Shown: one piece after another, positions 6,841 through 50,591 of the stretch
Position numbering within the stretch: position 1 is the stretch's first letter
How the letters are laid out: each line of letters begins with the position of its first letter
Assembly: GCF_017348835.2 (NCBI RefSeq)
Contig: NZ_CP071375.1
Length of the DNA stretch: 64,000 nucleotides
Direction: 5' to 3' (one strand)
Source of the DNA: Escherichia coli
GTDB lineage: Bacteria; Pseudomonadota; Gammaproteobacteria; Enterobacterales; Enterobacteriaceae
Position numbers and translations under genes: made by a program
The notes under the pieces: model-generated
The model's input: the letters and a program-made list of their open reading frames with translations, nothing else
What the model was told of the DNA's origin: nothing
Databases searched by the model: none

Positions 6841-7049
6841 GCAAAAGCCATGATTTAACTAATGTTTAGTATTAATTTAACTTTTGTGTAACTTAATTAC
6901 AGGGTGAATGTAAATAAACCATCAATAAGCAAAAATAAGTGGTCGGATGAGTAGTAAAATTACACAAAAGGCGGTACTATTTTCATCAGATAAACAAATT
7001 CATTTTTCCGGTGCTATTCACCGGGTAGATACAAAAGGGGGAGAAAAGT

Positions 7050-7256: not shown

Positions 7257-7357
7257 TTGCTGAGTTCTGAATACATTGAAAACCGCTAGTGGAAACGCTG
7301 GCGGTTTTTTTCTTTTCGCCGTCTACACTTACTCCTGTAAACCGTTCAGGAGCAGTA

Positions 7358-7867: not shown

Positions 7868-9282
7868 CTACCCATCTGGTCTGGTTTCGCCAGGATTTAC
7901 GTCTGCATGATAATCTCGCGCTGGCTGCCGCCTGCCGCAATTCGTCTGCACGCGTGCTGGCGTTGTATATCGCTACACCACGCCAGTGGGCGGCGCATAA
8001 TATGTCGCCGCGTCAGGCTGAACTTATCAATGCTCAACTGAACGGGCTACAAATCGCGCTGGCGGAAAAAGGCATTCCTTTATTGTTCCGTGAAGTGGAT
8101 GACTTTGCCGCCAGCGTCGAAATAGTTAAACAGGTGTGCGCGGAAAACAGCGTTACTCATCTTTTTTATAACTATCAGTATGAGGTGAATGAGCGGGCGC
8201 GGGATGTGCAGGTTGAGAGAACGCTGCGTAACGTGGTGTGTGAAGGATTTGATGACAGCGTGATCCTGCCGCCTGGCGCGGTGATGACCGGCAATCATGA
8301 GATGTACAAAGTCTTTACGCCTTTTCAAAATGCCTGGCTGAAACGGCTGCGGGAAGGGATGCCGGAGTGCGTCGCTGCACCAAAAGTTCGTAGTAGCGGA
8401 TCGATAAAGCCCGCGCCATCAATTACGCTGAATTATCCTCGTCAGTCTTTCGATACTGCGCATTTTCCGATGGAAGAAAAAGCGGCGATTGCGCAATTAC
8501 GCCAGTTTTGCCAGAACGGTGCCGGAGAATATGAGCAACAACGAGATTTTCCGGCAGTTGAAGGCACCAGCCGTTTGTCCGCCAGCCTGGCAACGGGCGG
8601 GTTATCACCTCGCCAGTGTTTGCATCGCCTGTTGGCGGAACAGCCGCAGGCGCTGGACGGTGGGGCCGGTAGTGTCTGGCTTAGTGAGCTGATCTGGCGC
8701 GAGTTCTACCGTCATCTGATGACGTATTACCCCTCGTTGTGTAAACATCGTCCATTTATTGCCTGGACGGATCGTGTGCAGTGGCAAAGCAATCCCGCCC
8801 ATTTAAAGGCCTGGCAGAAAGGCAAAACGGGATACCCGATTGTTGATGCCGCTATGCGTCAGCTTAACAGCACTGGCTGGATGCATAACCGGCTACGGAT
8901 GATTACAGCCAGTTTTCTGGTGAAAGATTTGTTGATCGACTGGCGCGAAGGCGAGCGATATTTCATGTCGCAGCTGATTGATGGTGATTTGGCAGCCAAT
9001 AACGGTGGCTGGCAGTGGGCGGCTTCTACGGGTACTGATGCAGCGCCGTATTTTCGTATTTTCAACCCGACAACCCAGGGCGAGAAATTTGACCGCGAAG
9101 GCGAGTTTATCCGCCAGTGGCTACCGGAACTACGCAATGTACCGGGGAAATCGGTGCATGAGCCGTGGAAGTGGGCGCAGAAAGCAGGTGTGAAGCTGGA
9201 TTATCCGCAACCGATAGTCGAGCACAAAGAGGCGAGAGTACAAACGTTGGCAGCGTATGAGGCGGCGCGGAAGGGGAAATAA
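7864..9282 (+). CDS. phr: Deoxyribodipyrimidine photolyase
   Basis: 472-aa ORF MTTHLVWFRQDLRLHDNLALAAAC... with photolyase/cryptochrome FAD-binding C-terminal region (WMHNRLRMITASFLVKDL). Confidence 0.95.
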   Translation: MTTHLVWFRQDLRLHDNLALAAACRNSSARVLALYIATPRQWAAHNMSPRQAELINAQLNGLQIALAEKGIPLLFREVDDFAASVEIVKQVCAENSVTHLFYNYQYEVNERARDVQVERTLRNVVCEGFDDSVILPPGAVMTGNHEMYKVFTPFQNAWLKRLREGMPECVAAPKVRSSGSIKPAPSITLNYPRQSFDTAHFPMEEKAAIAQLRQFCQNGAGEYEQQRDFPAVEGTSRLSASLATGGLSPRQCLHRLLAEQPQALDGGAGSVWLSELIWREFYRHLMTYYPSLCKHRPFIAWTDRVQWQSNPAHLKAWQKGKTGYPIVDAAMRQLNSTGWMHNRLRMITASFLVKDLLIDWREGERYFMSQLIDGDLAANNGGWQWAASTGTDAAPYFRIFNPTTQGEKFDREGEFIRQWLPELRNVPGKSVHEPWKWAQKAGVKLDYPQPIVEHKEARVQTLAAYEAARKGK

Positions 9283-9310
9283 CAGACGCGTCAGGCAATC
9301 GAGCCCAGAT

Positions 9311-9416
9311 GCCGGATGCGGCGTGAACGCCTTATCCAGCCTACAAATTTGTGCAAATTCAATAAATTGCAGGAAATACGTAGGCCTGATAAGACGCGTC
9401 AAGCGTCGCATCAGGC
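9311..9416. repeat. REP/BIME palindromic units between convergent phr and dtpD
   Basis: gccggatgcggcgtgaacgccttatccagcctac (9311-9344) and gtaggcctgataagacgcgtcaagcgtcgcatcaggc (9381-9416), typical enterobacterial REP sequences. Confidence 0.85.
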
Positions 9417-9431
9417 ATCGGTGCTGGCCTA

Positions 9432-11096
<1,665 letters not shown>

Positions 11097-11183
11097 TTAA
11101 TATGTCAAAAGATTGGCTATCGACGAACTGGCGAGGTAACGCTATGTTAACGGTGTAGCTATCAGAATACGGAAGGCGCGAAG

Positions 11184-11927
11184 ATGAAAAACACCGAACT
11201 GGAACAACTGATTAACGAAAAACTGAACAGCGCGGCGATTAGTGATTACGCGCCGAATGGTTTGCAGGTAGAAGGCAAAGAGACGGTGCAAAAAATTGTT
11301 ACCGGTGTCACTGCCAGCCAGGCTTTGCTCGATGAGGCAGTGCGTCTGGGCGCGGATGCGGTCATTGTGCATCATGGCTACTTCTGGAAAGGAGAGTCTC
11401 CGGTCATTCGCGGAATGAAGCGTAACCGTTTAAAAACGTTGCTGGCGAATGATATCAACCTGTATGGCTGGCATTTGCCGCTTGACGCACATCCTGAGCT
11501 GGGCAATAACGCACAGCTGGCGGCGTTACTGGGGATCACGGTCATGGGCGAAATTGAGCCGTTGGTGCCGTGGGGCGAACTGACCATGCCTGTGCCGGGA
11601 CTGGAGCTGGCTTCCTGGATTGAAGCGCGTCTGGGACGTAAGCCGTTATGGTGTGGCGATACCGGACCTGAGGTGGTCCAGCGCGTCGCCTGGTGCACGG
11701 GCGGCGGGCAAAGTTTTATCGATAGCGCCGCGCGTTTTGGCGTGGATGCTTTTATTACTGGCGAAGTTTCTGAACAGACCATTCATTCAGCCCGCGAGCA
11801 GGGATTGCATTTTTATGCTGCAGGTCACCATGCCACTGAACGTGGTGGTATTCGCGCATTGAGCGAGTGGCTGAATGAAAATACCGATCTTGATGTGACC
11901 TTTATTGATATTCCTAATCCTGCATAA
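11184..11927 (+). CDS. ybgI: Nif3-family metal-binding protein YbgI
   Basis: 247-aa ORF MKNTELEQLINEKLNSAAISDYAPNGLQVEGKE... Confidence 0.85.
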   Translation: MKNTELEQLINEKLNSAAISDYAPNGLQVEGKETVQKIVTGVTASQALLDEAVRLGADAVIVHHGYFWKGESPVIRGMKRNRLKTLLANDINLYGWHLPLDAHPELGNNAQLAALLGITVMGEIEPLVPWGELTMPVPGLELASWIEARLGRKPLWCGDTGPEVVQRVAWCTGGGQSFIDSAARFGVDAFITGEVSEQTIHSAREQGLHFYAAGHHATERGGIRALSEWLNENTDLDVTFIDIPNPA

Positions 11928-11949
11928 CGAATAATCAGAGGGATCGAAA

Positions 11950-12606
11950 GTGCAACGAGCGCGTTGTTATCTGATAGGTGAAACGGCGGTAGTGCTGGAA
12001 CTGGAACCGCCGGTGACGCTGGCTAGCCAGAAACGGATCTGGCGACTGGCGCAGCGTCTGGTGGATATGCCGAATGTGGTTGAAGCCATTCCCGGCATGA
12101 ACAATATCACGGTGATTTTGCGTAATCCTGAGTCGCTGGCGCTGGATGCCATAGAGCGTTTGCAACGCTGGTGGGAGGAGAGCGAGGCCCTGGAACCTGA
12201 GTCTCGCTTTATTGAAATTCCGGTGGTTTACGGTGGTGCAGGCGGACCGGATTTGGCGGTGGTCGCGGCGCATTGCGGGTTGAGCGAAAAACAGGTTGTT
12301 GAATTGCACTCCTCCGTGGAATACGTGGTCTGGTTTTTAGGTTTTCAACCGGGCTTCCCGTATCTCGGGAGTTTGCCGGAACAACTACACACGCCACGGC
12401 GCGCTGAACCGCGCTTGCTCGTTCCGGCAGGTTCTGTCGGGATCGGCGGGCCGCAGACTGGTGTTTATCCGCTGGCAACGCCGGGTGGCTGGCAGTTGAT
12501 TGGTCATACCTCACTCAGCCTGTTTGATCCGGCGCGTGACGAACCCATCTTATTACGTCCGGGAGACAGCGTGCGCTTTGTACCGCAAAAGGAGGGAGTA
12601 TGCTGA
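11950..12606 (+). CDS. pxpB: 5-oxoprolinase subunit B (allophanate hydrolase subunit 1 family)
   Basis: 218-aa ORF starting (V)[21 protein letters not shown]; position and sequence match ybgJ/pxpB. Confidence 0.8.
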
Positions 12607-13532
12607 AGATTATTCGTGCGGGCATGTATACCACTGTGCAAGATGGCGGTCGTCACGGTTTTCGCCAGTCGGGTATCAGCCACTGCGGCGCACTGGATAT
12701 GCCTGCGTTACGCATTGCTAACCTGCTGGTGGGTAATGACGCCAATGCCCCCGCGCTGGAGATCACGCTCGGTCAGTTAACGGTTGAGTTCGAAACTGAT
12801 GGGTGGTTTGCTCTGACGGGTGCCGGTTGCGAAGCGCGGCTGGATGATAATGCCGTCTGGACCGGCTGGCGATTGCCGATGAAAGCAGGCCAGCGTTTAA
12901 CGCTTAAACGCCCGCAGCACGGGATGCGCAGTTATCTGGCGGTCGCGGGTGGTATTGATGTTCCGCCGGTAATGGGATCATGCAGCACCGATCTCAAAGT
13001 GGGGATTGGCGGGCTGGAAGGCCGTTTACTGAAGGATGGTGACCGACTCCCGATTGGCAAATCGAAGCGTGATTTTATGGAAGCGCAGGGCGTTAAACAG
13101 CTGCTGTGGGGCAACCGCATTCGCGCCTTGCCGGGGCCGGAATATCATGAGTTCGATCGCGCCTCGCAGGATGCATTCTGGCGTTCGCCCTGGCAGCTTA
13201 GCTCGCAAAGTAACCGCATGGGCTATCGCTTACAGGGGCAAATTTTAAAACGCACCACCGATCGCGAACTGTTATCTCACGGTTTGTTACCGGGCGTGGT
13301 GCAGGTGCCGCATAACGGGCAGCCGATTGTGTTGATGAACGACGCACAGACCACCGGTGGTTACCCGCGTATTGCCTGTATCATTGAGGCTGATATGTAC
13401 CATCTGGCGCAAATTCCGCTCGGTCAGCCGATTCATTTTGTCCAGTGTTCACTGGAAGAGGCACTGAAAGCGCGGCAAGATCAGCAACGTTATTTTGAAC
13501 AATTAGCGTGGCGGCTGCACAATGAAAATTGA
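12600..13532 (+). CDS. pxpC: 5-oxoprolinase subunit C (allophanate hydrolase subunit 2 family)
   Basis: 310-aa [36 protein letters not shown]...; overlaps neighbouring genes as in ybgJKL. Confidence 0.8.
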
Positions 13533-14256
13533 CCTGAACGCCGATCTGGGCGAAGGCTGCGCCAGCGACGCAGAGCTATTAACGCTGGTTTCCTCTGCCA
13601 ATATTGCCTGTGGATTTCATGCAGGCGATGCGCAAACCATGCATGCTTGCGTGCGTGAAGCAATAAAAAATGGTGTTGCAATTGGCGCTCACCCGAGTTT
13701 TCCCGACAGGGAAAATTTTGGTCGCAGCGCCATGCAGCTGCCGCCAGAAACCGTTTACGCCCAGACGCTGTATCAAATTGGCGCGCTGGCAACGATTGCC
13801 CGTGCGCAAGGCGGCGTAATGCGTCATGTCAAACCGCACGGCATGTTGTACAACCAGGCGGCGAAAGAAGCACAACTGGCAGACGCCATCGCCAGAGCGG
13901 TATACGCTTGCGATCCAGCATTGGTTCTCGTTGGGCTGGCAGGAAGCGAGCTGATTCGTGCAGGCAAGCAATATGGCCTGACAACGCGCGAGGAAGTGTT
14001 TGCCGATCGCGGTTATCAGGCTGACGGCTCGCTGGTGCCGCGAAGCCAGTCAGGCGCGTTGATTGAAAACGAAGAACAGGCGCTGGCGCAAACGTTGGAG
14101 ATGGTGCAACACGGCAGAGTCAAAAGTATCACCGGCGAATGGGCAACAGTCACGGCGCAAACGGTCTGCCTGCATGGCGACGGCGAGCACGCACTGGCGT
14201 TCGCCCGCCGACTACGCTCTGCATTTGCCGAAAAGGGGATTGTTGTCGCAGCATAA
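13522..14256 (+). CDS. pxpA: 5-oxoprolinase subunit A (LamB/YcsF family)
   Basis: 244-aa [39 protein letters not shown]... Confidence 0.8.
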
Positions 14257-14291
14257 CCCCGATTAATAAAGAATGAAAAAAGGATATCACC

Positions 14292-15083
14292 ATGCCTGAA
14301 GGCCCGGAGATCCGCCGTGCAGCGGATAACCTGGAGGCGGCGATCAAAGGCAAACCACTAACTGAAGTCTGGTTTGCCTTCCCGCAGTTAAAATCTTATC
14401 AATCACCACTTATCGGTCAACACGTTACCCATGTGGAAACGCGTGGTAAGGCGTTGTTAACTCATTTTTCCAACGACTTAACGCTCTACAGCCATAATCA
14501 GCTTTACGGCGTCTGGCGCGTGGTTGATACCGGCGAAGAGCCGCAGACCACGCGAGTATTGCGGGTAAAACTGCAAACGGTTGACAAAACCATTCTGCTT
14601 TATAGCGCCTCGGATATTGAGATGTTGAGGCCGGAACAACTGACCACGCATCCGTTTTTACAACGCGTTGGTCCCGATGTGCTGGATCCGAATCTGACGC
14701 CGGAGGTGGTAAAGGAACGGCTATTGTCGCCGCGCTTTCGTAACCGTCAGTTTGCTGGATTACTGCTCGATCAGGCGTTTCTGGCAGGACTTGGCAATTA
14801 TTTGCGGGTGGAGATCCTCTGGCAGGTTGGGTTGACTGGAAATCATAAAGCGAAAGAACTCAATGCGGCGCAACTGGATGCACTCGCACACGCGTTACTG
14901 GATATTCCTCGATTTTCCTACGCTACGCGGGGGCAGGTGGATGAGAATAAGCATCATGGGGCGCTGTTTCGCTTTAAGGTTTTTCATCGTGATGGCGAAC
15001 TGTGCGAACGCTGTGGCGGCATCATTGAGAAAACCACGCTGTCATCTCGCCCGTTTTACTGGTGTCCGGGCTGCCAGCACTAG
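14292..15083 (+). CDS. nei: Endonuclease VIII (DNA glycosylase/AP lyase)
   Basis: 263-aa [24 protein letters not shown]... with N-terminal PEGPE catalytic motif and C-terminal zinc finger (CERCGG...CPGCQ). Confidence 0.9.
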
Positions 15084-16126
15084 GCCGTACGTTTCGGCGC
15101 ATAGGTTGAAATAAACCGCGCAATGGCAGGCCCTGTCAGCAAAATACTGAACAGGCGCAGGGTTTGCATCGCCATAATGAGCGCCATATCGGCATTGCTC
15201 CCTGCGGCGATGACCGCCACGGTATCAAGCCCGCCGGGGCTGGTGGCGAGGTAGGCAGTCATAAAATCAATGTGCATAAACCGGGTCAGTCCCCACGCCA
15301 TACCCGCACAAATAGCCAGCAGAGCAAAAATCGACAGCAGGATTTGTGGTAGCGGGCGTAGTGCCCGCAGTAAGATTTGTTTATCGAAACCAAGACCAAT
15401 CCGCCAGCCAATTGCCATATACGCCATCGCCAGCAGCCATTCCGGTAGTTCGATGGTGATGAGCTGACCAGACTGGAGCACTGCGCCCGCCAGCATCGGG
15501 ATGAGCATCGTGCCGGAAGGAAGACGCAGCAGGCATCCCACTGTACCGGCAACGACCGCGAGCAAAATAGTAAGCAGGAGATTAATGCTCACTGGCGGGA
15601 ACCAGACGATATGCTGGTTAACCGCTTCAGCGTTATCACCCAGCATCATGCGAGTGACCAGAACAGCGGCCCCCGCGACGAACAGCACTCGCAGATATTG
15701 CATAAACGCCACCAGGCGAATATCTGCGCCGTAATCTTGCGCCATAGCGACCATTGCCGCCGCGCCGCCAGGAGAGGAACCCCAGGCACCGGTATTTCCA
15801 GGCAATGAGCTATAGCGCACCAATAACCAACCCACGATGGCGCTGGAAAGCAGCGTTACCAGTAAAATTGCAAGCACGATCGGCCAGTTGACGGCCAGGG
15901 TGGTGAGAATCGAACCAGTGAGGTTTTGCGCAATCATGCAGCCAAGAATGGCCTGCGCGGCGAGAAAAGCGGAGCGGGGGAGTTGCAGGATAACCCCGCG
16001 CATACTGAAGATGATCCCGGCGATCATCGGCCCAAGTAATAATGCCGCCGGGAGATGTACCGCGAGGAAACCAATAGAAAGGAGAAGTGATAGCACACAT
16101 AACATTCCCCACTGCAAAACTGGCAT
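15080..16126 (-). CDS. abrB: AbrB-family putative transporter
   Basis: ORF 15080..16141; likely start [23 protein letters not shown]; polytopic membrane protein; 4-bp convergent overlap with nei. Confidence 0.8.
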
Positions 16127-16274
16127 CCTTTGCTCCCTCATTATTTACTCTTTGGTGTATCGATACAGCATAAAGAATGCCGGGCATGGAAAAAATAACG
16201 GTAATCAATAAAAGCCGGAAAATTGGCAATTAACCGAAGAAGCCCTCTCCGGCTGGAAAGGGCAATAGGCTAAA

Positions 16275-17336
16275 TCAGTTGTAGTTAATTTTGAAAAGTA
16301 CCACTGTATCAAAGGGACCAACGTCGATGGGCGTACCCGGCGTGGATGACAATTCTGCCGTGTAGGTTTTTTCATACACTAACAGGTCGCTGGTAAAATC
16401 GGCATACTCACTGTATTTGTTGAAAGTATAGGGTGAGGCATTTTCATCCAACAATCGAAGCTTCAGGCCATTGCCAATGAGCAGTGATTTATCTTCGTCG
16501 ATAAGGGTTTCATCGGTATAAAACGAAGAGCTGACTTTAAAACCGTCGGTACACTGGTCGTTTTGTGATTTGGTTGTAGTTATTTTAAATTGCTGCGACA
16601 TCGTATGGCGACGAATATCCAGCACGTTAAATCGGCCAAAATCAACGACCTGGGTTTCAGGTGAGATAGCAAAGTTGACGCTGCAATCCAGCACGCGGAT
16701 ATTTTCCAGACCGGTAATGTGATATTTCAGATTCTTCGCGGTAGGGTCTTCGTTCACGCTGCCTGCGCCATCAAACTGTACGACGATGTAATCGCTGAGT
16801 TTGCTCTGATAATCATGGGGCGGCATGGCGCGAACTTTAACGTAAAGCCGCATACGCGCCACAAACGTCCGCGATTTGTGCATAACGGTTGGATCGCCGG
16901 AGCAAAGTTTATTTTGCCAGCCCATCGCAATGATCTGCTCCGGGGTGTAAATATCAATATTCTTACTGTCGATGCACTGATTCGTGTCGATGCGGCTTTT
17001 CCCAAGGCTTGCGTCATAGTCCACGCCTTCATAGGTTACGCCCAATTGATAATAGGGATCCTGAATACCGGGGTAAGGGTTTACCCAGGCGTAGACGTGC
17101 TCGCTTTCAAAATTACCGTTTGTGTTGTTGTCACAGTAGACCGGAATTTTTATATCGTCAGATTCCCAGATTTTATCGCCGGGTTTGGAATTGGCCGGAA
17201 CGGCGAAGGGCATAATAGCTTCCGATTTTTCTACAGCGCCGTTTGCGGTACCAAAATAGCAGTTCAGCGCCAGCGCCGCTTTTAGCGGCAAAAAAATCAG
17301 ACAGATGGCGAGCAACACGCCTTTGGCGAATCTCAT
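16275..17336 (-). CDS. ybgO: Fimbrial adhesin-like protein (chaperone-usher fimbriae)
   Basis: 353-aa ORF with signal peptide [23 protein letters not shown]; last gene of a four-gene chaperone-usher operon. Confidence 0.75.
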
Positions 17337-29877: not shown

Positions 29878-31095
29878 ATGAGTAGCGTAGATATTCTGGT
29901 CCCTGACCTGCCTGAATCCGTAGCCGATGCCACCGTCGCAACCTGGCATAAAAAACCCGGCGACGCAGTCGTACGTGATGAAGTGCTGGTAGAAATCGAA
30001 ACTGACAAAGTGGTACTGGAAGTACCGGCATCAGCAGACGGCATTCTGGATGCGGTTCTGGAAGATGAAGGTACAACGGTAACGTCTCGTCAGATCCTCG
30101 GTCGCCTGCGTGAAGGCAACAGCGCCGGTAAAGAAACCAGCGCCAAATCTGAAGAGAAAGCGTCCACTCCGGCGCAACGCCAGCAGGCGTCTCTGGAAGA
30201 GCAAAACAACGATGCGTTAAGCCCGGCGATCCGTCGCCTGCTGGCTGAACACAACCTCGACGCCAGCGCCATTAAAGGCACCGGTGTGGGTGGTCGTCTG
30301 ACTCGTGAAGATGTGGAAAAACATCTGGCGAAAGCCCCGGCGAAAGAGTCTGCTCCGGCAGCGGCTGCTCCGGCGGCGCAACCGGCTCTGGCTGCACGTA
30401 GCGAAAAACGTGTCCCGATGACTCGCCTGCGTAAGCGTGTGGCAGAGCGTCTGCTGGAAGCGAAAAACTCCACCGCCATGCTGACCACGTTCAACGAAGT
30501 CAACATGAAGCCGATTATGGATCTGCGTAAGCAGTACGGTGAAGCGTTTGAAAAACGCCACGGCATCCGTCTGGGCTTTATGTCCTTCTACGTGAAAGCG
30601 GTGGTTGAAGCCCTGAAACGTTACCCGGAAGTGAATGCTTCTATCGACGGCGATGATGTGGTTTACCACAACTATTTCGACGTCAGCATGGCGGTTTCTA
30701 CGCCGCGTGGCCTGGTGACGCCGGTACTGCGTGATGTCGATACCCTCGGCATGGCAGACATCGAGAAGAAAATCAAAGAGCTGGCAGTTAAAGGCCGTGA
30801 CGGCAAGCTGACGGTTGAAGATCTGACCGGTGGTAACTTCACCATCACCAACGGTGGTGTGTTCGGTTCCCTGATGTCTACGCCGATCATCAACCCGCCG
30901 CAGAGCGCAATCCTGGGTATGCACGCTATCAAAGATCGTCCGATGGCGGTGAATGGTCAGGTTGAGATCCTGCCGATGATGTACCTGGCGCTGTCCTACG
31001 ATCACCGTCTGATCGATGGTCGCGAATCCGTGGGCTTCCTGGTAACGATCAAAGAGTTGCTGGAAGATCCGACGCGTCTGCTGCTGGACGTGTAG
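29878..31095 (+). CDS. sucB: Dihydrolipoyllysine-residue succinyltransferase (E2 of 2-oxoglutarate dehydrogenase)
   Basis: 405-aa ORF with N-terminal lipoyl domain ([11 protein letters not shown]) and C-terminal catalytic motif (DHRLIDG). Confidence 0.97.
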
Positions 31096-31111
31096 TAGTT
31101 TAAGTTTCACC

Positions 31112-31287
31112 TGCACTGTAGACCGGATAAGACATTATCGCCTTCTCCGGCAATTGAAGCCTGATGCGACGCTTAACGCGTCTTATCAGGCCTACGGGAA
31201 GCACCGATGTAGGTCGGATAAGGCGCTCGCGCCGCATCCGACAAGCGATGCCAGATGCGACGCTTACACGTCTTATCAGGCCTACGG
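31112..31287. repeat. REP/BIME cluster between sucB and sucC
   Basis: Several copies of gcctgatgcgacgc...gtcttatcaggcctac and gtaggtcggataaggcgctcgcgccgcatccgac type palindromes. Confidence 0.85.
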
Positions 31288-31370
31288 GTGACCGACAATA
31301 CCCGGAAGCGATACGAAATATTCGGTCTACGGTTTAAAAGATAACGATTACTGAAGGATGGACAGAACAC

Positions 31371-32537
31371 ATGAACTTACATGAATATCAGGCAAAACAA
31401 CTGTTTGCCCGCTATGGCTTACCAGCACCGGTGGGTTATGCCTGTACTACTCCGCGCGAAGCAGAAGAAGCCGCTTCAAAAATCGGTGCCGGTCCGTGGG
31501 TAGTGAAATGTCAGGTTCACGCTGGTGGCCGCGGTAAAGCGGGCGGTGTGAAAGTTGTAAACAGCAAAGAAGACATCCGTGCTTTTGCAGAAAACTGGCT
31601 GGGCAAGCGTCTGGTAACGTATCAAACAGATGCCAATGGCCAACCGGTTAACCAGATTCTGGTTGAAGCGGCGACCGATATCGCTAAAGAGCTGTATCTC
31701 GGTGCCGTTGTTGACCGTAGTTCACGTCGCGTGGTCTTTATGGCCTCTACCGAAGGCGGCGTGGAAATCGAAAAAGTGGCGGAAGAAACTCCGCACCTGA
31801 TCCACAAAGTTGCGCTTGATCCGCTGACTGGCCCGATGCCGTATCAGGGACGCGAGCTGGCGTTCAAACTGGGTCTGGAAGGTAAACTGGTTCAGCAGTT
31901 CACCAAAATCTTCATGGGCCTGGCGACCATTTTCCTGGAGCGCGACCTGGCGCTGATCGAAATCAACCCGCTGGTCATCACCAAACAGGGTGATCTGATT
32001 TGCCTCGACGGCAAACTGGGCGCTGATGGCAACGCCCTGTTCCGCCAGCCTGATCTGCGCGAAATGCGTGACCAGTCGCAGGAAGATCCACGTGAAGCAC
32101 AGGCTGCACAGTGGGAACTGAACTACGTTGCGCTGGACGGTAACATCGGTTGTATGGTTAACGGCGCAGGTCTGGCGATGGGTACGATGGACATCGTTAA
32201 ACTGCACGGCGGAGAACCGGCTAACTTCCTGGACGTTGGCGGCGGCGCAACCAAAGAACGTGTAACCGAAGCGTTCAAAATCATCCTCTCTGACGACAAA
32301 GTGAAAGCCGTTCTGGTTAACATCTTCGGCGGTATCGTTCGTTGCGACCTGATCGCTGACGGTATCATCGGCGCGGTAGCGGAAGTGGGTGTTAACGTAC
32401 CGGTCGTGGTACGTCTGGAAGGTAACAACGCCGAACTCGGCGCGAAGAAACTGGCTGACAGCGGCCTGAATATTATTGCAGCAAAAGGTCTGACGGATGC
32501 AGCTCAGCAGGTTGTTGCCGCAGTGGAGGGGAAATAA
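31371..32537 (+). CDS. sucC: Succinyl-CoA synthetase beta subunit
   Basis: 388-aa [42 protein letters not shown]... Confidence 0.97.
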
Positions 32538-33406
32538 TGTCCATTTTAATTGATAAAAACACCAAGGTTATCTGCCAGGGCTTTACCGGTAGCCAGGGGA
32601 CTTTCCACTCAGAACAGGCCATTGCATACGGCACTAAAATGGTTGGTGGCGTAACTCCAGGTAAAGGCGGCACTACCCACCTCGGCCTGCCGGTGTTCAA
32701 CACCGTGCGTGAAGCTGTTGCTGCTACTGGTGCTACCGCGTCTGTTATCTACGTACCAGCACCGTTCTGCAAAGACTCCATTCTGGAAGCCATCGACGCA
32801 GGCATCAAACTGATTATCACCATCACTGAAGGTATCCCGACGCTGGATATGCTGACCGTGAAAGTGAAACTGGACGAAGCAGGCGTTCGTATGATCGGCC
32901 CGAACTGCCCAGGCGTTATCACCCCGGGTGAATGCAAAATCGGTATCCAGCCGGGTCACATTCACAAACCGGGTAAAGTGGGTATCGTTTCCCGTTCCGG
33001 TACACTGACCTATGAAGCGGTTAAACAGACCACGGATTACGGTTTCGGTCAGTCGACCTGTGTCGGTATCGGCGGTGACCCGATCCCTGGCTCTAACTTT
33101 ATCGACATTCTCGAAATGTTCGAAAAAGATCCGCAGACCGAAGCGATCGTGATGATCGGTGAGATCGGCGGTAGCGCAGAAGAAGAAGCTGCTGCGTACA
33201 TCAAAGAGCACGTTACCAAGCCAGTTGTAGGTTACATCGCTGGTGTGACTGCGCCGAAAGGCAAACGTATGGGCCACGCGGGTGCCATCATTGCCGGTGG
33301 GAAAGGGACTGCGGATGAGAAATTCGCTGCTCTGGAAGCCGCAGGCGTGAAAACCGTTCGCAGCCTGGCGGATATCGGTGAAGCACTGAAAACTGTTCTG
33401 AAATAA
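32537..33406 (+). CDS. sucD: Succinyl-CoA synthetase alpha subunit
   Basis: 289-aa [42 protein letters not shown]... Confidence 0.97.
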
Positions 33407-33508
33407 ATATCTGTAATAAGAAATAGCCCTCGCCGCTTCCCTCTACAGGAATGGCGAAGGGCTGTCGGTTTCGACATGGTTGGCCATCGTATGATGGCCT
33501 TTTTTATG
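33407..33508 (+). ncRNA. sdhX: 3'-UTR-derived small RNA SdhX (RybD) ending at the operon terminator
   Basis: Segment directly after the sucD stop with hairpin agccctcgcc...ggcgaagggct and terminator hairpin ggccatcgtatgatggcc + TTTTTT; matches my recollection of the sRNA made from the sdh-suc 3' UTR. Confidence 0.55.
33482..33508 (+). terminator. Rho-independent terminator of the sdhCDAB-sucABCD transcript
   Basis: ggccatcgtatgatggcc stem-loop followed by TTTTTT. Confidence 0.85.
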
Positions 33509-34072
33509 CCTTAAACGGTTAACCACGGTCGAAATCTGACTGCAGGCTTGACTGCATGACCACAGCCACTGTGGATTGTCGCAACCGACCGCAAGCCACG
33601 AATAAGAACGACGGCGAATTTCGAATCGTTACCTGATGCACTGGCTTCCCAGCGTTTGACCGTAGCGTTAAGTAAATCAACAAAAGCGATGTTCACCGCT
33701 TTTCGTCAAGTCGTGCCATTTGTCAGCCAGGATCGGGTCTTTACCCCGGATATTGCAGCATCGCAAAAATTCTTAGAGGGATATGCTATAAATCAAAAAT
33801 AAAATCTTTGTTGATTGTTTATCATAATATCCACAGATATGATAAATGATATCAATTTAATAATTTTCACTTAATGTGATTCCGGATAATTCGAAAGGCG
33901 CTGTGCTTTTCGGATTATTATTATCTGATTAAGATATTTGTCACGCCAGGCTTACTGGTTTATAAATGTCAATCATGATTCTTATAAATTATTTATTGCT
34001 GCTTTGGTTACCATTACTTCGTAATAAGTAATGTATTTTTGATTGTTTAAACTATTTTTAAGGGACGGCATT

Positions 34073-34978
34073 ATGCGAGGGAAAATACCTAAAACGGAAC
34101 TGCTGGTGACTTTTGAGGTCGTCGCACGTCATGAAAGTTATACCAGAGCGGCAGAGGAGTTAGCGTTAACCCAAAGTGCAGTATTCAGACAAGTAAGTGC
34201 GCTGGAGGAATTTTTACGTACTCCGTTATTTTCACACTCTAAAAAACGTATTTTTCTTAATGATGCAGGGAAGTATTACCTGGGGATAGTAAAAGAAACA
34301 TTAAATAAGCTGGAACGCGATACCAATACCATTATGACCTGGCAGCCTACGGTTCAGGTTATTGAACTTGCCGTTAATCCTACTTTTAGTACCCACTGGT
34401 TAATCCCAAATTTACATGAATTCACAAAGTTACATCCCGATATTATTGTTAATATTCATTCTTTAGCTAATAACGGCGATTTTCTTAATCGGGAGTACGA
34501 TGCTGTCATTATGCGCGAAAATTTTTGCGCGCCCTGGGCGGAAGTAGAATATCTCTTTGATGAGGAGATTTTGCCGGTATGCAGCGGCAGTTTGCTTGCA
34601 ATGTCCGATCAAAAACTGTCAGTGGCAGAACTGCTTACTGAGTTACCGCTTCTGCATCAAAGCACCCGTATTACTGGCTGGGAAGAGTGGTTTGCTTTAT
34701 CTGGCGTTAGCAGTCCGCTGGTCAATAACGGACCACGTTTCGATTTGCTATCAATGCTGATTGCCGCCGTGCGCTCTAATCTCGGCGTGGCGCTGTTACC
34801 ACGTTTCGCTATTCAACATGATTTGGATAGTGGCGATATGGTGATCCCCTGTGATGTGCCTATTCGTACCGGTAATCGTTTTATTATGACGTGGCAGGAA
34901 GAGAAGTCTGACTCACCGCACTTGCAGCAATTTCGTGAATGGTTGCTGGTGAAATCGGTCGTACCGCAGGAGATGTAA
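34073..34978 (+). CDS. LysR-type transcriptional regulator (candidate regulator of the adjacent operon)
   Basis: ORF 34043..34978; ATG at 34073 with AGGGA RBS; N-terminal HTH (ELLVTFEVVARHESYTRAAEELALTQSAVFRQVSALEEFL) typical of LysR regulators plus a C-terminal substrate-binding domain. Confidence 0.85.
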   Translation: MRGKIPKTELLVTFEVVARHESYTRAAEELALTQSAVFRQVSALEEFLRTPLFSHSKKRIFLNDAGKYYLGIVKETLNKLERDTNTIMTWQPTVQVIELAVNPTFSTHWLIPNLHEFTKLHPDIIVNIHSLANNGDFLNREYDAVIMRENFCAPWAEVEYLFDEEILPVCSGSLLAMSDQKLSVAELLTELPLLHQSTRITGWEEWFALSGVSSPLVNNGPRFDLLSMLIAAVRSNLGVALLPRFAIQHDLDSGDMVIPCDVPIRTGNRFIMTWQEEKSDSPHLQQFREWLLVKSVVPQEM

Positions 34979-34981
34979 AAC

Positions 34982-35008
34982 CTGCGCCTGGCGGGATGCC
35001 AGGCGCAG
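34982..35008. terminator. Bidirectional hairpin terminator between the convergent LysR gene and adenosyltransferase gene
   Basis: ctgcgcctgg-cgggatg-ccaggcgcag perfect 10-bp stem flanked by T-rich sequence on both strands. Confidence 0.7.
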
Positions 35009-35011
35009 TTA

Positions 35012-35614
35012 TTACCAGTCGATACCCGGCTGGGCCTGAATGCCGTTATCAAAAGCATGTTTGACGGGGCGGATTTCGCTTACCGTATCCGCCATTTTTA
35101 ATATCTGACTGTGGCAACCGCGTCCGGTGACAATGACACTTTGTTGTGCCGGGCGGTTTTGCAGAGAAGCGATCACTTCTTCGGTATCCAAATAATGGTA
35201 AGCCAGCATATAGGTCAGCTCATCAAGCACCACTAAGTCGTAACGCTTGTCAGCCAGCATCCGTTTGCTTTCCGACCAGACCTCTTTCGCCGCGTCGATA
35301 TCCGCTTGCCGGTTCTGTGTCTCCCAGGTAAAACCAGTTCCCATAATATGAAACTCAACCCCCAGCGGCTGGAGAAGGTTGTATTCGCCGTTGTCCCATT
35401 GCCCCTTGATGTACTGCGCAACCCCCACCGTTTTGCCATGACCCACCGCGCGCGTCACAGTACCAAACGCGGCAGTGGATTTCCCTTTGCCGTTGCCGGT
35501 GAAAACAATCAAGATCCCTTTTTTCTCTATCGCCGCTGCGACGCGCGTATCGACCTGTTCCTTCAATTTCTGTTGGCGCTGCACATGCCGTTCAGTTGAA
35601 ATTCGCGCTTCCAT
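35012..35614 (-). CDS. ATP:cob(I)alamin adenosyltransferase (BtuR/CobO/CobA family) paralogue
   Basis: 200-aa ORF MEARISTERHVQRQQKLKEQVDTRVAAAIEKKGILIVFTGNGKGKSTAAFG... closely parallels E. coli BtuR (IIIVFTGNGKGKTTAAFG P-loop, RPVKHAFD); last gene of the operon. Confidence 0.85.
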   Translation of the reverse strand: MEARISTERHVQRQQKLKEQVDTRVAAAIEKKGILIVFTGNGKGKSTAAFGTVTRAVGHGKTVGVAQYIKGQWDNGEYNLLQPLGVEFHIMGTGFTWETQNRQADIDAAKEVWSESKRMLADKRYDLVVLDELTYMLAYHYLDTEEVIASLQNRPAQQSVIVTGRGCHSQILKMADTVSEIRPVKHAFDNGIQAQPGIDW

Positions 35615-35623
35615 TCATTTTCC

Positions 35624-37276
35624 TTAATGTCCCGCAGGGCAACTGGCGCAGCGATGTTGCTGCTCAAACTGACTAAAGAAATTATTGCCTTTATCATCTA
35701 CCAGGATGAATGCGGGCAGATTTTCCACTTCCATCATCCACACCGCTTCCATACCCAGCTCCGGATATTCCAGGCAACGCAGACTTTTGACATATTCTTG
35801 CGCCAGTAACGCAGCTGCACCGCCAATACTTCCCAGATTGAAGCCGCCATGTTTGTGACAGGCATCGGTGACCTGCTGGCTGCGGTTACCTTTCGATAAC
35901 ATCACCAGACTGCCGCCAGCCGCCTGGAAGGTATCGATATAACGGTCCATTCGACCGCCCGTGGTTGGACCCAGTGAACCGCAGGCCATGTTCTCCGGTG
36001 TTTTCGCCGGGCCAGCGTAATAGACAATATGATGCTTCAGGTACTCCGGCATCGATTCGCCGCTATCCAGCCGCGCTTTTATTTTGGCGTGGGCGATATC
36101 GCGCGCCACTACGATGGGACCACTTAACGACACGCGGGTGCCTACCGGTAATCTGGCGAGATCCAGCATCACGTCACGCAACGGACGGTTTAGATCCAGT
36201 TGTACATGTTGCGCGTGATTTTCTTCCCGCAATGAGGCTGGAATATATTGCCCCGGATTGTGTTCGAGTTTTTCCAGCCAGATACCGTGTTTGTTAATTT
36301 TTGCTTTGATATTGCGATCGGCAGAACAGGAGAGCGCCATAGCTATCGGGCAAGAGCCACCGTGACGCGGCAGACGAATGACGCGAATATCATGAGCGAA
36401 ATATTTCCCCCCAAATTGTGCACCAATACCAAATTGCTGACTGGCCTCGAGCAACACTTTTTCCAGCTCAATATCACGGAATGCTTGTCCCTGCTCGTTT
36501 CCGCTGGTGGGCAAATTGTCGTAATATTTCGTTGAGGCCAGCTTGGCAACTTTTAAGGTTTGATCGGCTGAAAGCCCTCCGACGGCAAAGGCGATGTGGT
36601 AAGGCGGGCAGGCAGCGGTGCCCAGCGATTTCATTTTTTCGATTAAAAATGCGGTCAGTTTTTCTGGTTGCAATAAGGATTTGGTTTCCTGATAAAGCGC
36701 GGCTTTATTGGCAGAGCCGCCTCCTTTATTAACACAGAGGAAATGGTACTCATCACCAGCGACAGCGCTGATATCAATCTGCGCCGGGAGATTGGTTTGC
36801 GTATTGACTTCGGTATACATATCCAGCGGCGCATTTTGTGAAAAGCGCAGATTATTTTCCTGGAAAGTACTGTAAATGCCTTTACTTAAGGCTTCGGCGT
36901 CGTTACTTCCGGTCCATATCTGTTGCCCTTTACTGGCAACAATAGTTGCGGTGCCGGTATCCTGACAGTTGGGTAATACCCCTTTTGCTGAGACTTCAGC
37001 ATTACGTAATAACTGCAACGCAACGTATTTATCATTACTACTGGCCTGCTGATCGTTAAGAATGCTGGCGACCTGTTGCAAATGAGTGGAACGTAAGAAA
37101 AAAGAGGCTTCATAAAATGCCTGCCGGGCAAGCAGCGTTAATGCTTCAGGAGTGATTTTTATCACTTCTTCGCCGTCTAATTCCGTTACTGTAATATGTT
37201 GATCGCTAATTAATGTATATTCTGTACCGTCTTTATTTTGTAGAAACGGTTCTTGCCAGATAAATGGTTTGGACAT
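35624..37276 (-). CDS. fumD: Class I fumarate hydratase paralogue; probable mesaconase (2-methylfumarate hydratase)
   Basis: 550-aa ORF collinear with FumA/FumB ([45 protein letters not shown]); mesaconase role inferred from operon context. The fumD symbol is from memory of an O157:H7 report. Confidence 0.8.
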
Positions 37277-37383
37277 ATTTCACTTTTCACCTTAAACGTT
37301 AGTGTTACTTAATTGCCGTCTAACTTCATGATCCGGCTTATAAAAATGCGTAGTCATTGGCTTCAGATTGCTTAAGAGCCCCC

Positions 37384-38664
37384 TCAGGGCAGAGCAACGT
37401 TCGATTCATTGGTTTTTAATGCTTTACCCCGACAGCCCTCGCCGAAATGTTCGCCTTCCCACCGACTCACCATCGCAGCGCCCATTGCGTTACTCATGAC
37501 GTTTGTCGCGGAACGCCCCATATCAAGGAACGGATCAACGCCCATCAGCAAGATCAGCCCCGCTTCCGGAATATTGAACTGGTTGAGCGTGGCGGCGATA
37601 ACCACCATTGAGGCGCGTGGTACGCCAGCCATTCCTTTCGAGGTCAACATCAGGATCAACAGCATGGTGATTTGCTCACCGATGGATAAATGGATATTGC
37701 AGGCCTGGGCGATGAAAACTGTGGCGAAGGAGCAGTAGGCCATTGATCCAACGAGATTAAATGAGTAGCCAATGGGTAAGACAAAGCTGGCAATTTTGGG
37801 GGAAACGCCAAATTGCTCCAGTTTTTCAAGCGTTCCCGGAAAAGCCGCTTCAGAACTGGATGTGGTAAATGCCAACAGGGCGGGTTCCGAAAGGGCGCGG
37901 GTCAGGCGTCTGATGCAGGGGCCGACATAAACGATGGCCAGACCGATAAGCAGCACCCAAAGTAATAACATGGTGAAATAAAATTCACCCATAAAGATCC
38001 CGGCGCTCACCATAACGGCCAGTCCTCGTTCAGCAATCAATGCTGAAATAGCGGCGAATACGGTCAGGGGAGCGAAGAGCATGACGTAGCCAGTGAGCTT
38101 TAACATGGCATGTGCCAGCGAATCTAAGGCGTGAACGATGGCGCTGCCTTTCTCGCCAATCGCCGTCAGGCTACAGCCGAGGAAAATTGAGAACACCACG
38201 ATTTGCAAAATTTCATTGTGCGCCATGGCATCGACAATGCTGGTGGGGAAAGCATGCGAAATAAATACTTTTAGCGTAAAGGGTTCTGCCGCGACCACTC
38301 CGGTGGTTTCGGCACCGTGTGCAACAAAATTAATTCCTGTACCTGGCATGAAGAAATTTACCGTTATCAAGCCTAAGGCAATTGACAGCAATGAGGCGCA
38401 AATAAATAAAAAGAGTGTTTTAGAAAAAATACGACCAAGGGCTTTAGCATCGCCCATTTTAGCAATACCTACCACCAGGGTAGAAACCACTAACGGAGCG
38501 ATAATCATTTTTATCAGTCGTAAGAAAATCGTCGTGAATATCGATATTTCTTGCGCATAGAGTTTTGCTGTTTCCGGTGAAGCAGTGTTATTGAGCACTA
38601 CGCCGATAATCATTCCAAGTACCAGCGCCAAAAGAATCATCGTGGTTAAACTTATTTTCTTCAT
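37384..38664 (-). CDS. Dicarboxylate/amino acid:cation symporter (DAACS, GltP/DctA-like)
   Basis: ORF 37384..38685; start MKKISLTTMILLALVLGMIIG preceded by GGAGG RBS; multi-pass membrane protein of the DAACS family. Confidence 0.8.
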   Translation of the reverse strand: MKKISLTTMILLALVLGMIIGVVLNNTASPETAKLYAQEISIFTTIFLRLIKMIIAPLVVSTLVVGIAKMGDAKALGRIFSKTLFLFICASLLSIALGLITVNFFMPGTGINFVAHGAETTGVVAAEPFTLKVFISHAFPTSIVDAMAHNEILQIVVFSIFLGCSLTAIGEKGSAIVHALDSLAHAMLKLTGYVMLFAPLTVFAAISALIAERGLAVMVSAGIFMGEFYFTMLLLWVLLIGLAIVYVGPCIRRLTRALSEPALLAFTTSSSEAAFPGTLEKLEQFGVSPKIASFVLPIGYSFNLVGSMAYCSFATVFIAQACNIHLSIGEQITMLLILMLTSKGMAGVPRASMVVIAATLNQFNIPEAGLILLMGVDPFLDMGRSATNVMSNAMGAAMVSRWEGEHFGEGCRGKALKTNESNVALP

Positions 38665-38719
38665 TTTTTCCTCCATCAGGTGCACGGCGATAAATCAGAA
38701 TCAGGAGAAGTAGATGCCT

Positions 38720-47531: not shown

Positions 47532-47867
47532 TTTTAATTCTTGAAAAAAATCTGCAAAACACGATAAATTGTCGTAGATCAAATTGGTGAGATCGTGACA
47601 ATTTCGCTATAAATTGATCACTGTCGAAAAATGCAAATTTGCTCAATAAAAACCTGTTTATTGTAAGGATTTTGCGGCGTAATATAATTACGGGATCAAT
47701 TTGGTTTATTCATTAACATATTTGTAACTTTTTTATCATTGTCTTTTCCTCTTTTGATGAAATGGCAACGATAGAGGCGAGCAAATAATTTTGTATTGGG
47801 GCATGCGTGTGACCCTTTCTAACGGGGTTCACTCTCGGAGTCTTCATGCGATGAGCAAGGAGTCATG

Positions 47868-49436
47868 ATGTTAGATATAGTCGAACTGTCGCGCTTACAG
47901 TTTGCCTTGACCGCGATGTACCACTTCCTTTTTGTGCCACTGACGCTCGGTATGGCGTTCCTGCTGGCCATTATGGAAACGGTCTACGTCCTTTCCGGCA
48001 AACAGATTTATAAAGATATGACCAAGTTCTGGGGCAAGTTGTTTGGTATCAACTTCGCTCTGGGTGTGGCTACCGGTCTGACCATGGAGTTCCAGTTCGG
48101 GACTAACTGGTCTTACTATTCCCACTATGTAGGGGATATCTTCGGTGCGCCGCTGGCAATTGAAGGTCTAATGGCCTTCTTCCTCGAATCCACCTTTGTA
48201 GGTCTGTTCTTCTTCGGTTGGGATCGTCTGGGTAAAGTTCAGCATATGTGTGTCACCTGGCTGGTGGCGCTCGGTTCAAACCTGTCCGCACTGTGGATTC
48301 TGGTTGCGAACGGCTGGATGCAAAACCCAATCGCGTCCGATTTCAACTTTGAAACTATGCGTATGGAGATGGTGAGCTTCTCCGAGCTGGTGCTTAACCC
48401 GGTTGCTCAGGTGAAATTCGTTCACACTGTAGCCTCTGGTTATGTGACTGGCGCGATGTTCATCCTCGGTATCAGCGCATGGTATATGCTGAAAGGTCGT
48501 GACTTCGCCTTCGCTAAACGCTCCTTTGCTATCGCTGCCAGCTTCGGTATGGCTGCCGTTCTGTCTGTTATTGTTCTGGGTGATGAATCCGGCTACGAAA
48601 TGGGCGACGTGCAGAAAACCAAACTGGCTGCTATTGAAGCTGAGTGGGAAACGCAACCTGCGCCTGCTGCCTTTACTCTGTTCGGCATTCCTGATCAGGA
48701 AGAGGAGACGAACAAATTTGCTATCCAGATCCCTTACGCGCTGGGCATCATTGCAACGCGTTCCGTGGATACTCCAGTTATCGGCCTGAAAGAACTGATG
48801 GTGCAGCATGAAGAACGCATTCGTAACGGGATGAAGGCGTACTCTCTGCTTGAGCAACTGCGTTCTGGTTCTACCGACCAGGCGGTTCGTGACCAGTTCA
48901 ATAGCATGAAGAAAGACCTCGGTTACGGTCTGCTGCTGAAACGCTATACGCCAAACGTGGCTGATGCGACTGAAGCTCAGATTCAACAGGCAACCAAAGA
49001 CTCCATTCCGCGTGTAGCGCCGCTGTACTTCGCGTTCCGTATCATGGTGGCGTGTGGCTTCCTGCTGCTGGCAATCATCGCGCTCTCTTTCTGGAGTGTC
49101 ATCCGCAACCGCATTGGCGAGAAAAAATGGCTGCTGCGCGCCGCGCTGTACGGTATTCCGCTGCCGTGGATTGCTGTAGAAGCGGGCTGGTTCGTGGCTG
49201 AATATGGCCGCCAACCGTGGGCTATCGGTGAAGTGCTGCCGACAGCTGTGGCGAACTCGTCACTGACCGCAGGCGATCTCATCTTCTCAATGGTGCTGAT
49301 TTGCGGCCTGTATACCCTGTTCCTGGTGGCAGAATTGTTCTTAATGTTCAAGTTTGCACGCCTCGGCCCAAGCAGCCTGAAAACCGGTCGCTATCACTTT
49401 GAGCAGTCTTCCACGACTACTCAGCCGGCACGCTAA
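47868..49436 (+). CDS. cydA: Cytochrome bd-I ubiquinol oxidase subunit I
   Basis: 522-aa product [41 protein letters not shown]... (ORF track starts one Met earlier). Confidence 0.97.
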
Positions 49437-49451
49437 GACAGGAGTCGTCAA

Positions 49452-50591
49452 ATGATCGATTATGAAGTATTGCGTTTTATCTGGTGGCTGCTGGTTGGCG
49501 TTCTGCTGATTGGTTTTGCAGTCACTGACGGTTTCGACATGGGGGTGGGCATGCTCACCCGTTTCCTCGGTCGTAACGACACCGAGCGTCGAATTATGAT
49601 TAACTCCATTGCACCACACTGGGACGGTAACCAGGTTTGGCTGATCACCGCAGGCGGCGCACTGTTTGCTGCCTGGCCGATGGTCTATGCCGCTGCGTTC
49701 TCCGGCTTCTATGTGGCGATGATCCTCGTGCTGGCGTCTTTGTTCTTCCGTCCGGTCGGTTTTGACTACCGCTCCAAGATTGAAGAAACCCGCTGGCGTA
49801 ACATGTGGGACTGGGGCATCTTCATTGGTAGCTTCGTTCCGCCGTTGGTGATTGGTGTAGCGTTCGGTAACCTGTTGCAGGGCGTACCGTTCAACGTTGA
49901 TGAATATCTGCGTCTGTACTACACCGGTAACTTCTTCCAGCTGCTTAACCCGTTCGGCCTGCTGGCAGGCGTGGTGAGCGTAGGGATGATCATTACTCAG
50001 GGCGCGACTTATCTGCAGATGCGTACCGTGGGCGAACTGCACCTGCGTACCCGTGCAACGGCTCAGGTGGCGGCACTGGTGACACTGGTCTGCTTCGCAC
50101 TAGCTGGCGTATGGGTGATGTACGGTATCGATGGTTATGTCGTGAAATCGACAATGGACCATTACGCAGCCTCTAACCCGCTGAATAAAGAAGTGGTTCG
50201 TGAAGCTGGCGCATGGCTGGTTAACTTCAACAACACGCCAATTCTGTGGGCTATTCCGGCACTGGGTGTGGTTCTGCCGCTGCTGACCATCCTGACTGCA
50301 CGTATGGATAAAGCCGCGTGGGCGTTTGTGTTCTCCTCCCTGACGCTGGCCTGCATCATCCTGACTGCCGGTATCGCAATGTTCCCGTTTGTGATGCCGT
50401 CCAGCACCATGATGAACGCAAGTCTGACAATGTGGGATGCAACTTCCAGCCAGCTGACACTTAACGTCATGACCTGGGTTGCGGTGGTTCTGGTACCGAT
50501 CATTCTGCTCTACACCGCCTGGTGTTACTGGAAAATGTTCGGTCGTATCACCAAAGAAGATATTGAACGTAACACCCACTCTCTGTACTAA
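49452..50591 (+). CDS. cydB: Cytochrome bd-I ubiquinol oxidase subunit II
   Basis: 379-aa ORF MIDYEVLRFIWWLLVGVLLIGFAVTDGFDMGVGMLTRFL... Confidence 0.97.
   Translation: MIDYEVLRFIWWLLVGVLLIGFAVTDGFDMGVGMLTRFLGRNDTERRIMINSIAPHWDGNQVWLITAGGALFAAWPMVYAAAFSGFYVAMILVLASLFFRPVGFDYRSKIEETRWRNMWDWGIFIGSFVPPLVIGVAFGNLLQGVPFNVDEYLRLYYTGNFFQLLNPFGLLAGVVSVGMIITQGATYLQMRTVGELHLRTRATAQVAALVTLVCFALAGVWVMYGIDGYVVKSTMDHYAASNPLNKEVVREAGAWLVNFNNTPILWAIPALGVVLPLLTILTARMDKAAWAFVFSSLTLACIILTAGIAMFPFVMPSSTMMNASLTMWDATSSQLTLNVMTWVAVVLVPIILLYTAWCYWKMFGRITKEDIERNTHSLY

Follow-up and report, generated by a model that had tools for sequence, protein, structure and literature searches.

The window examined here, a stretch of 64,000 nucleotides of Escherichia coli DNA, carries a methylaspartate/FumD island in the slot between sucD and cydA; its genes were assigned from a list of open reading frames (ORFs) and from the RefSeq annotation of strain PE164, which is 100% identical to it. 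SucD is encoded by the last gene of sdhCDAB-sucABCD (32537-33406, plus strand), which is 98% identical to its K-12 counterpart and ends with the stop codon at 33404-33406. The sucD 3' untranslated region, which is the small RNA SdhX (33407-33505, plus strand), runs to the end of a T6 tract; about 570 bp without an annotated gene separate that tract from the ATG, at 34073, of a LysR-family regulator (34073-34978, plus strand; identified by annotation and by the Pfam domains HTH_1 and LysR_substrate), the first intact gene of the island. The remainder of the island, two hypothetical genes included, lies on the minus strand (35012-47491; PE164 annotation and ORFs), and the order after the LysR gene is cobO, fumD (encoding a class I fumarase/mesaconase), a gltP-like symporter gene, the DUF4387 and AtuA-like genes, the methylaspartate ammonia-lyase (MAL) gene, glmE, glmL and glmS. 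At its right end the island has two minus-strand ORFs (45614-47062; 140 and 314 amino acids) without a Pfam match. The GC content is 49-50% over 33400-33700 as against 27-33% over 33700-34100, which bears out the original prediction, made from the letters of this DNA, that 33510-33700 is normal in composition and that the region upstream of the LysR gene (33700-34072) is AT-rich. Farther to the left, the spacer between sucB and sucC (31125-31322 in the window) is 275 bp long in the window and in K-12 and about 94 bp long in strains carrying the rtcB-hut module described below; in the window and K-12 it holds REP-like palindromic repeats (GCCTGATGCGACGCT... and GCCGGATAAGGCG-like).

SdhX (RybD) is an Hfq-dependent small RNA that arises by processing of the sdhCDAB-sucABCD 3' UTR (Miyakoshi et al. 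2019, PMC6393394), and its published seed, UUCGACAUGGU (core CGACAU), lies immediately 5' of the terminator (PMC6393394). In the window the seed TTCGACATGGT occupies 33470-33480, directly before the terminator hairpin found by a terminator scan: a stem-loop at 33482-33499 with a GC-rich stem of 7 bp, followed by T6 at 33500-33505. The 101-nt 3' UTR folds at -41.3 kcal/mol (z = -4.7), well under shuffled controls. Across 33407-33505 the window and K-12 are 100% identical, and mismatch begins only at 33506 (A for G). The terminator that had been proposed to close the sdh-suc transcript and to form the 3' end of SdhX is thus in its expected place, and both it and the SdhX 3' end are unaltered relative to K-12. 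The naming of the RNA as SdhX rests on K-12 identity and on the published seed because an Rfam scan of 33000-34500 at E <= 1 gave no match to the SdhX family, returning two spurious AT-rich matches, RsaOG and Ricks_sRNA10 (E about 1). Given its sequence, the window RNA would be expected to share the RNase E processing, the Hfq binding and the repression of ackA of the K-12 RNA. Salmonella lacking the whole sucD 3' UTR has lowered SucD and is impaired in growth on acetate (PMC6393394). SdhX is polymorphic across the cassette types of E. coli considered next (alignment of the equivalent of 33420-33500): the base in the terminator loop varies (G, A or T), in the upstream hairpin GGAGGGGCG replaces GGAATGGCG in the TPR-only type, and one partial-mngR strain has a 7-nt deletion in that hairpin; the seed is invariant across the aligned types.

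The end of sucD is common to all 5425 E. coli genomes having a match, and K-12-type genomes lose the match at about 33513. K-12 homology ends at the T-tract, where K-12 carries the convergent gene mngR, with its stop codon starting 4 nt past T6. Five independent cassette types were aligned (K-12 mngRAB, a partial-mngR type, a TPR-only type, rtcB-hut and the window), and all of them diverge 0-5 nt past the T-tract, immediately after GGCCTTTTTT. The accessory DNA does abut the terminator, as the original prediction held, and the alignment with genomes lacking the island puts the junction at the T-tract, where the cassettes of this replacement hotspot have their left border in common. At its other end the island gives way to K-12 homology raggedly, near 47491/47492 and ahead of cydA (47865). 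The raggedness extends into the cydA promoter region; the cydAB upstream region (47400-47800) is a mosaic with respect to K-12, with 49%, 67%, 91% and 60% identity in 100-bp bins and about 100% from 47800 on. The features of a classical integrative genomic island, a tRNA or tmRNA att site and an integrase, were not found: tRNA genes were searched in 30000-50000, an integrase among the RefSeq-annotated genes, and repeats within 33380-34100. Alternative cassettes at the locus have common borders. With no tRNA gene, no annotated integrase and common borders, the locus fits an exchange of cassettes through homologous recombination in its flanks, sucD and cydA, which is the probable mode of turnover.

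What, then, occupies the DNA between the T-tract and the LysR gene? It is not conserved core sequence; nor is it, as had been thought, devoid of recognizable identity, for it aligns to rtcB and HAL as they occur in other E. coli strains. A sensitive search of other E. coli genomes with the 274 bp past the terminator returned "RtcB family protein" for query positions 1-99 and "HAL/PAL/TAL family ammonia-lyase" for 103-274. Intact alleles of both genes (Pfam RtcB, PF01139, at 1.4e-95; HAL, PF00221, at 4.2e-123 over amino acids 34-526) allow the segment to be laid out against strain CLSC36 (locus L006, NZ_CP041300). Blastn of window 33300-34200 against L006 yields four collinear blocks separated by three gaps: 33300-33546 corresponds to L006 6432-6677 (97%; sucD end, SdhX and rtcB 3' end), 33549-33605 to 6853-6909 (89%; rtcB), 33609-33669 to 16001-16061 (87%; HAL), and 33665-34200 to 16405-16940 (89%; HAL 3' end, spacer and LysR start).

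The rtcB and HAL genes are each represented by two remnants, amounting to 40 + 57 bp of rtcB and 56 + 138 bp of HAL. rtcB remnant a (33507-33546, minus strand; L006 6638-6677 by blastn) is the last 13 or so codons of the RtcB-family gene (PAVRFRPWLT...); in tblastn it reads VKPAVRFRPWLT against IHPAVRFRPWLT in the intact protein (RtcB amino acids 451-462). rtcB remnant b (33549-33605, minus strand; L006 6853-6909, 89.5%) covers RtcB amino acids 376-394 (YSWLAVGCDNPQWLWSCS), and the two remnants are in different minus-strand frames (E = 8e-5 for a and 2e-11 for b). The segment at 33606-33664 (plus strand) consists of the rtcB/HAL junction (GAACGACGGCG) and, from 33609, HAL remnant a, with HAL amino acids 378-397 (TANFESLPDALASQRLTVAL; L006 16001-16061, 87%; 18/20 residues identical by tblastn); HAL remnant b (33665-33802, plus strand; L006 16405 onward) is the last 46 codons and the stop of the HAL/PAL/TAL ammonia-lyase gene (40/46 identical by tblastn). 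These two are joined in one plus-strand frame (tblastn E = 9e-8 for a and 3e-24 for b). In strains with an intact rtcB the coding sequence ends at the equivalent of 33504, and the stop codon is made of the last two Ts of the SdhX T-tract and A33506; in remnant a an additional G near 33518 shifts the stop from 33504-33506 to 33511-33513.

Full-length domains are a long way off: the window covers only amino acids 376-394 and 451-462 of RtcB, in two frames, and retains only amino acids 378-397 and 511-556 of HAL, and Pfam gave no match for either the RtcB remnant or the 63-amino acid HAL-frame remnant. When the HAL-frame remnant was used in a large protein search, nine short Escherichia/Shigella fragments came back and no full-length relatives; some NCBI records call the 48-amino acid remnant ORF "histidine ammonia-lyase". 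The rtcB and HAL pieces are pseudogene fragments, and there is very little doubt that 33507-33802 is a composite, non-functional deletion scar of an rtcB-family gene and a HAL gene. Its normal GC content (33510-33760) follows from its being former coding sequence. The original prediction was right in suspecting a remnant and mistaken about its source and extent: the debris does not come from an earlier occupant of the site, it is what is left of the island's own lost left module (rtcB and a six-gene hut operon), and it continues past 33700 to 33802, on both strands (rtcB on the minus strand, HAL on the plus strand).

The full-length island is seen in CLSC36, in which the order is sucD, rtcB (minus strand), hutU, a permease gene, hutD, hutI, hutG, HAL, LysR, cobO, fumarase, symporter, DUF4387, AtuA, MAL, glmE, glmL, glmS, two hypothetical genes and cydA. 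The rtcB paralogue, convergent to sucD, and the hut module, which runs from hutU to an atypical HAL of 556 amino acids, lie upstream of the methylaspartate/FumD cluster (6636-16542 at L006; 9205-18246 in NZ_OZ501657), and the hut operon ends 270 bp upstream of the LysR gene. Such an island encodes HAL, HutU, HutI, HutG, HutD and the permease beside glutamate mutase and MAL: a complete gene route from histidine to glutamate to mesaconate. Among 5426 complete E. coli genomes, the mal gene, which marks the presence of the island, is found in 1122; the window-type scar, O157:H7 included, in 832-835; and hutU in 145; about 145 of the genomes keep the whole arrangement seen in CLSC36. A third state, in which an intact rtcB is followed by 456 bp of unrelated AT-rich DNA and then by the LysR gene, accounts for 145-151 of the 5426. 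The 456 bp (for example, NZ_CP098223, 15511-15966) are unrelated to both the hut module and the window spacer. The three states of the island (hut-positive, rtcB-LysR and scar) come together about 18 bp before the LysR ATG.

Outside Escherichia, the closest intact relatives of the HAL are those of Sutterella and Turicimonas, at 56-57% identity. A contig scan with HAL returned the scars of Escherichia sp. E1V33 and E. whittamii, a contig of a "Citrobacter sp." metagenome-assembled genome (MAG) and a set of homologues at 43-57% identity, but among these no intact allele nearer to the window remnants. The MAG contig (DXKH01000067.1) has a 12.9-kb stretch, sucD included, that is 99.7% identical to E. 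coli L006, with a HAL that is 100% identical, and is probably mis-binned E. coli.

Comparison of these loci shows what the ancestral sucD-cydA island looked like, opening with a convergent rtcB followed by hutU, the permease gene, hutD, hutI, hutG and HAL, and shows that at least four deletions removed about 9.6 kb of it in the window lineage. The first, of about 175 bp, lies inside rtcB, between remnants a and b; CGCTGG repeats flank it in the E1V33-like state, and the window lacks a further 13 bp. The second, of about 8.9 kb, begins at rtcB codon ~376, ends midway through HAL and joins rtcB ...CACGAATAA to HAL GAACGACGG... (L006 15811) with no clear microhomology. The third, of 190 bp, is specific to the window and lies between the 8-bp direct repeats CGACGGTG (L006 15814) and CGACGGCG (L006 16001). 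The fourth removed about 343 bp in frame inside HAL, between the imperfect 9-10-bp repeats GCGTTGGTA and GCATTAGGTA. The rtcB/HAL junction is the same in Escherichia sp. E1V33, which keeps the 190 bp and the 13 bp and so represents an intermediate state; its HAL-internal deletion (L006 16196-16455) overlaps that of the window but is not identical to it, and so is of independent origin. In E. whittamii the island, again at this sucD site, bears other scars, among them a 134-bp piece of hutU. The order and place of these events are what we infer from the alignments, the immediate full-length parent being unsampled: the remnants are 86-89% identical to L006, as against 98-99% for the rest of the island.

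Five diverse scar-type strains, O157:H7 86-24 among them, have identical junctions and differ in 1-bp indels. The identical junctions argue for a single origin of the scar, and the lineage-specific indels for ongoing neutral decay: of the five strains compared, only the window and O157:H7 86-24 carry the extra G near 33518, and one scar-type strain is frameshifted in the HAL remnant. O157:H7 strains are 99.6% identical to the window over the scar.

The AT-rich stretch that precedes the LysR gene is the old HAL-LysR spacer (33803-34072, plus strand; GC 27-33%), kept from the full-length island and collinear with L006 16543-16812. A promoter scan of this LysR upstream spacer gave no plus-strand sigma-70 match. 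It contains a hairpin with a 15-bp stem (33885-33899/33905-33919) that is conserved in four lineages, including E. coli, E. sp. E1V33 and E. whittamii, and the three stem substitutions of the window all keep pairing (G·U, U·G and A-U); the hairpin may be the old terminator of the lost hut operon.

The spacer is also the place at which the history of the scar becomes complicated. Its identity to the intact E. coli allele is 86%, and 22 singleton changes in it are specific to the window. Across 33507-34081 the window is 86-89% identical to L006; from the LysR gene to cydA it is 98-99% identical in most 500-bp bins (the lowest, at 45165, being 93.4%). The switch near the LysR start is sharp: 57 differences over 33667-34081 are followed by 5 over about 570 bp (34082-34648), and the LysR gene is 98.9% identical to that of L006, with only 2 amino acid differences. 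(At the other end of the island, 45165-46164 is less conserved relative to L006, at 93-95%, than the remaining island.) When the spacers of four lineages are compared, L006, E1V33 and E. whittamii are 91.5-93% identical among themselves, and the window is the outlier, at 86-87.5%; from the LysR gene on, the window goes with L006 (98.9%) and is 85% identical to the other species. This incongruence suggests either an old haplotype that has been kept apart or introgression from an unsampled Escherichia lineage.

On the second of these, the scar haplotype, 33507-34081, would not have decayed in place from the full-length E. coli island of today: a divergent Escherichia lineage would have formed it or passed it on, and homologous recombination, crossing over in sucD/SdhX and near the start of the LysR gene, would have brought it into E. 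coli. We give this an even chance. It bears only on where the scar came from and not on what the segment is. The abrupt step from 86-89% to about 99% identity at 34082 is what it would lead one to see; the divergence of the segment equals that from other Escherichia species; the window's 22 spacer singletons compare with 5-9 in the three other lineages; and the rtcB/HAL junction is common to E1V33, in which rtcB remnant b is 96.5% identical. Set against this, no donor more than 96% identical over the whole segment was found, nor did the search of E. coli genomes and the contig scan with HAL turn up a closer intact parent of the scar haplotype; relaxed constraint after hut loss could add divergence, and suppressed recombination beside a 9-kb indel could preserve an old haplotype within the species. 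Whichever way the haplotype came, the reading of 33507-33802 as a deletion scar is the same.

Two other readings do challenge what the segment is. A minus-strand ORF of 61 amino acids with a GTG start does span the scar (33511-33696; ORF list), as the original prediction had pointed out, yet its own frame is not a gene remnant: just its last 10 or so codons are in the rtcB frame, the remainder being out-of-frame rtcB and antisense HAL, and Pfam gave no match for its product. That it encodes a real small protein, a new gene born of the scar, is very improbable. The frame is open in 5/5 scar-type strains examined, but among strains that are 97-100% identical the openness of 61 codons means nothing; besides the GTG start and the missing Pfam match, a Shine-Dalgarno sequence is not evident, the frame does not agree with that of the longer rtcB fragment and runs antisense to HAL, its C-terminus varies with a 1-bp indel between scar-type strains, and RefSeq has no annotation there in most genomes (the one "hypothetical protein" inspected is on the plus strand). 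To all appearances the ORF is no gene but a frame that by chance is open across the scar. The proposal that the segment is a relic of mngR, the displaced K-12-type occupant, has next to nothing to recommend it beyond the K-12 mngR stop lying at almost the same position, 4 nt past the T-tract, and is rejected: nothing aligns beyond the T-tract (the K-12 match ends at ~33505-33513), the C-terminal residues of MngR are found in none of the frames, there is no similarity to K-12 mngR DNA or protein, and the segment aligns to rtcB and HAL instead.

If a deletion scar it is, how was it made, and why does it stop where it does? The deletions would have arisen by slipped-strand or illegitimate recombination. 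On the left, decay would have been halted at the T-tract by selection on the SdhX seed and terminator; on the right, it would have been halted at the LysR upstream spacer by retention of the methylaspartate module. The presumable loss is the histidine-to-glutamate route feeding the glutamate mutase/MAL/FumD pathway of the island, with SdhX left as it was. Turnover of islands at this hotspot has, in other words, left SdhX intact to the last U, and the unannotated 300 bp beside it in O157:H7 and about 830 complete genomes are pseudogene debris rather than a gene or a regulatory RNA.

A broader reading can be put forward, although we hold it somewhat less probable than its opposite: the O157:H7-type FumD/methylaspartate island would be a truncated form of a larger island, old within the genus, that combines a complete Hut pathway with B12-dependent glutamate fermentation; about 2.7% of complete E. 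coli genomes would still have it in working order, and the scar haplotype, carried by about 15% of E. coli, would have been introgressed from a divergent Escherichia lineage. Were it true, hut-positive E. coli would be a metabolically distinct subgroup and the larger island could be thought of as an "oxidative histidine fermentation" island; E. coli is generally regarded as unable to use histidine. By the deletion-scar reading itself, the well-studied FumD/glutamate-fermentation cluster is the surviving half of a histidine-plus-glutamate catabolic island, which matters for the lack of a clear physiological role of that cluster in O157:H7-type strains; the hut-positive strains are the ones to examine for island function. 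In the searchable literature, neither the rtcB-hut module nor the rtcB'/'HAL scar and its junction was found to be described.

The components of this locus all have known counterparts. Compared with SdhX of K-12, the window RNA is the same in its seed, its terminator hairpin and its U-tract, and only the DNA past T6 departs. The K-12 mngR-mngA-mngB cassette sits in the same sucD-cydA slot and likewise has a convergent gene ending a few bases past the SdhX T-tract, but it is unrelated in sequence and occupies 5.9 kb as against about 14 kb in the window. Decay of pseudogenes through deletion at short direct repeats reflects the known deletional bias of bacterial genomes, and the scar is alike in kind, with nested deletions, several of them associated with 6-10-bp direct repeats, and lineage-specific indels. 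The window genes belong to the methylaspartate/FumD cluster, by PE164 annotation and by matching ORFs, and are the same, in the same order, as those of the O157:H7 glutamate-fermentation/FumD cluster in the passages of Kronen & Berg (2015) drawn on here, which describe a LysR-type regulator (LTTR), a cobalamin adenosyltransferase, FumD, GltP, a DUF1446/AtuA-like protein, MAL and GlmE/L/S, and which make no mention of rtcB or hut remnants or of a longer, hut-bearing form (PMC4682846). Gut anaerobes combine the Hut and methylaspartate pathways in an "oxidative histidine pathway", for which E. coli has served as a non-histidine-metabolising control (bioRxiv 10.64898/2026.06.22.733842); the full-length E. 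coli island has the same pathway logic. Relative to Hut operons, the window retains just 194 bp of HAL, and the module is dead. SdhX, the FumD cluster, the Hut genes and deletional decay are all familiar, and the scar is an ordinary pseudogene scar at a known replacement hotspot; the most interesting by-product of the comparison is the island that joins hut genes to the methylaspartate pathway in a minority of E. coli.
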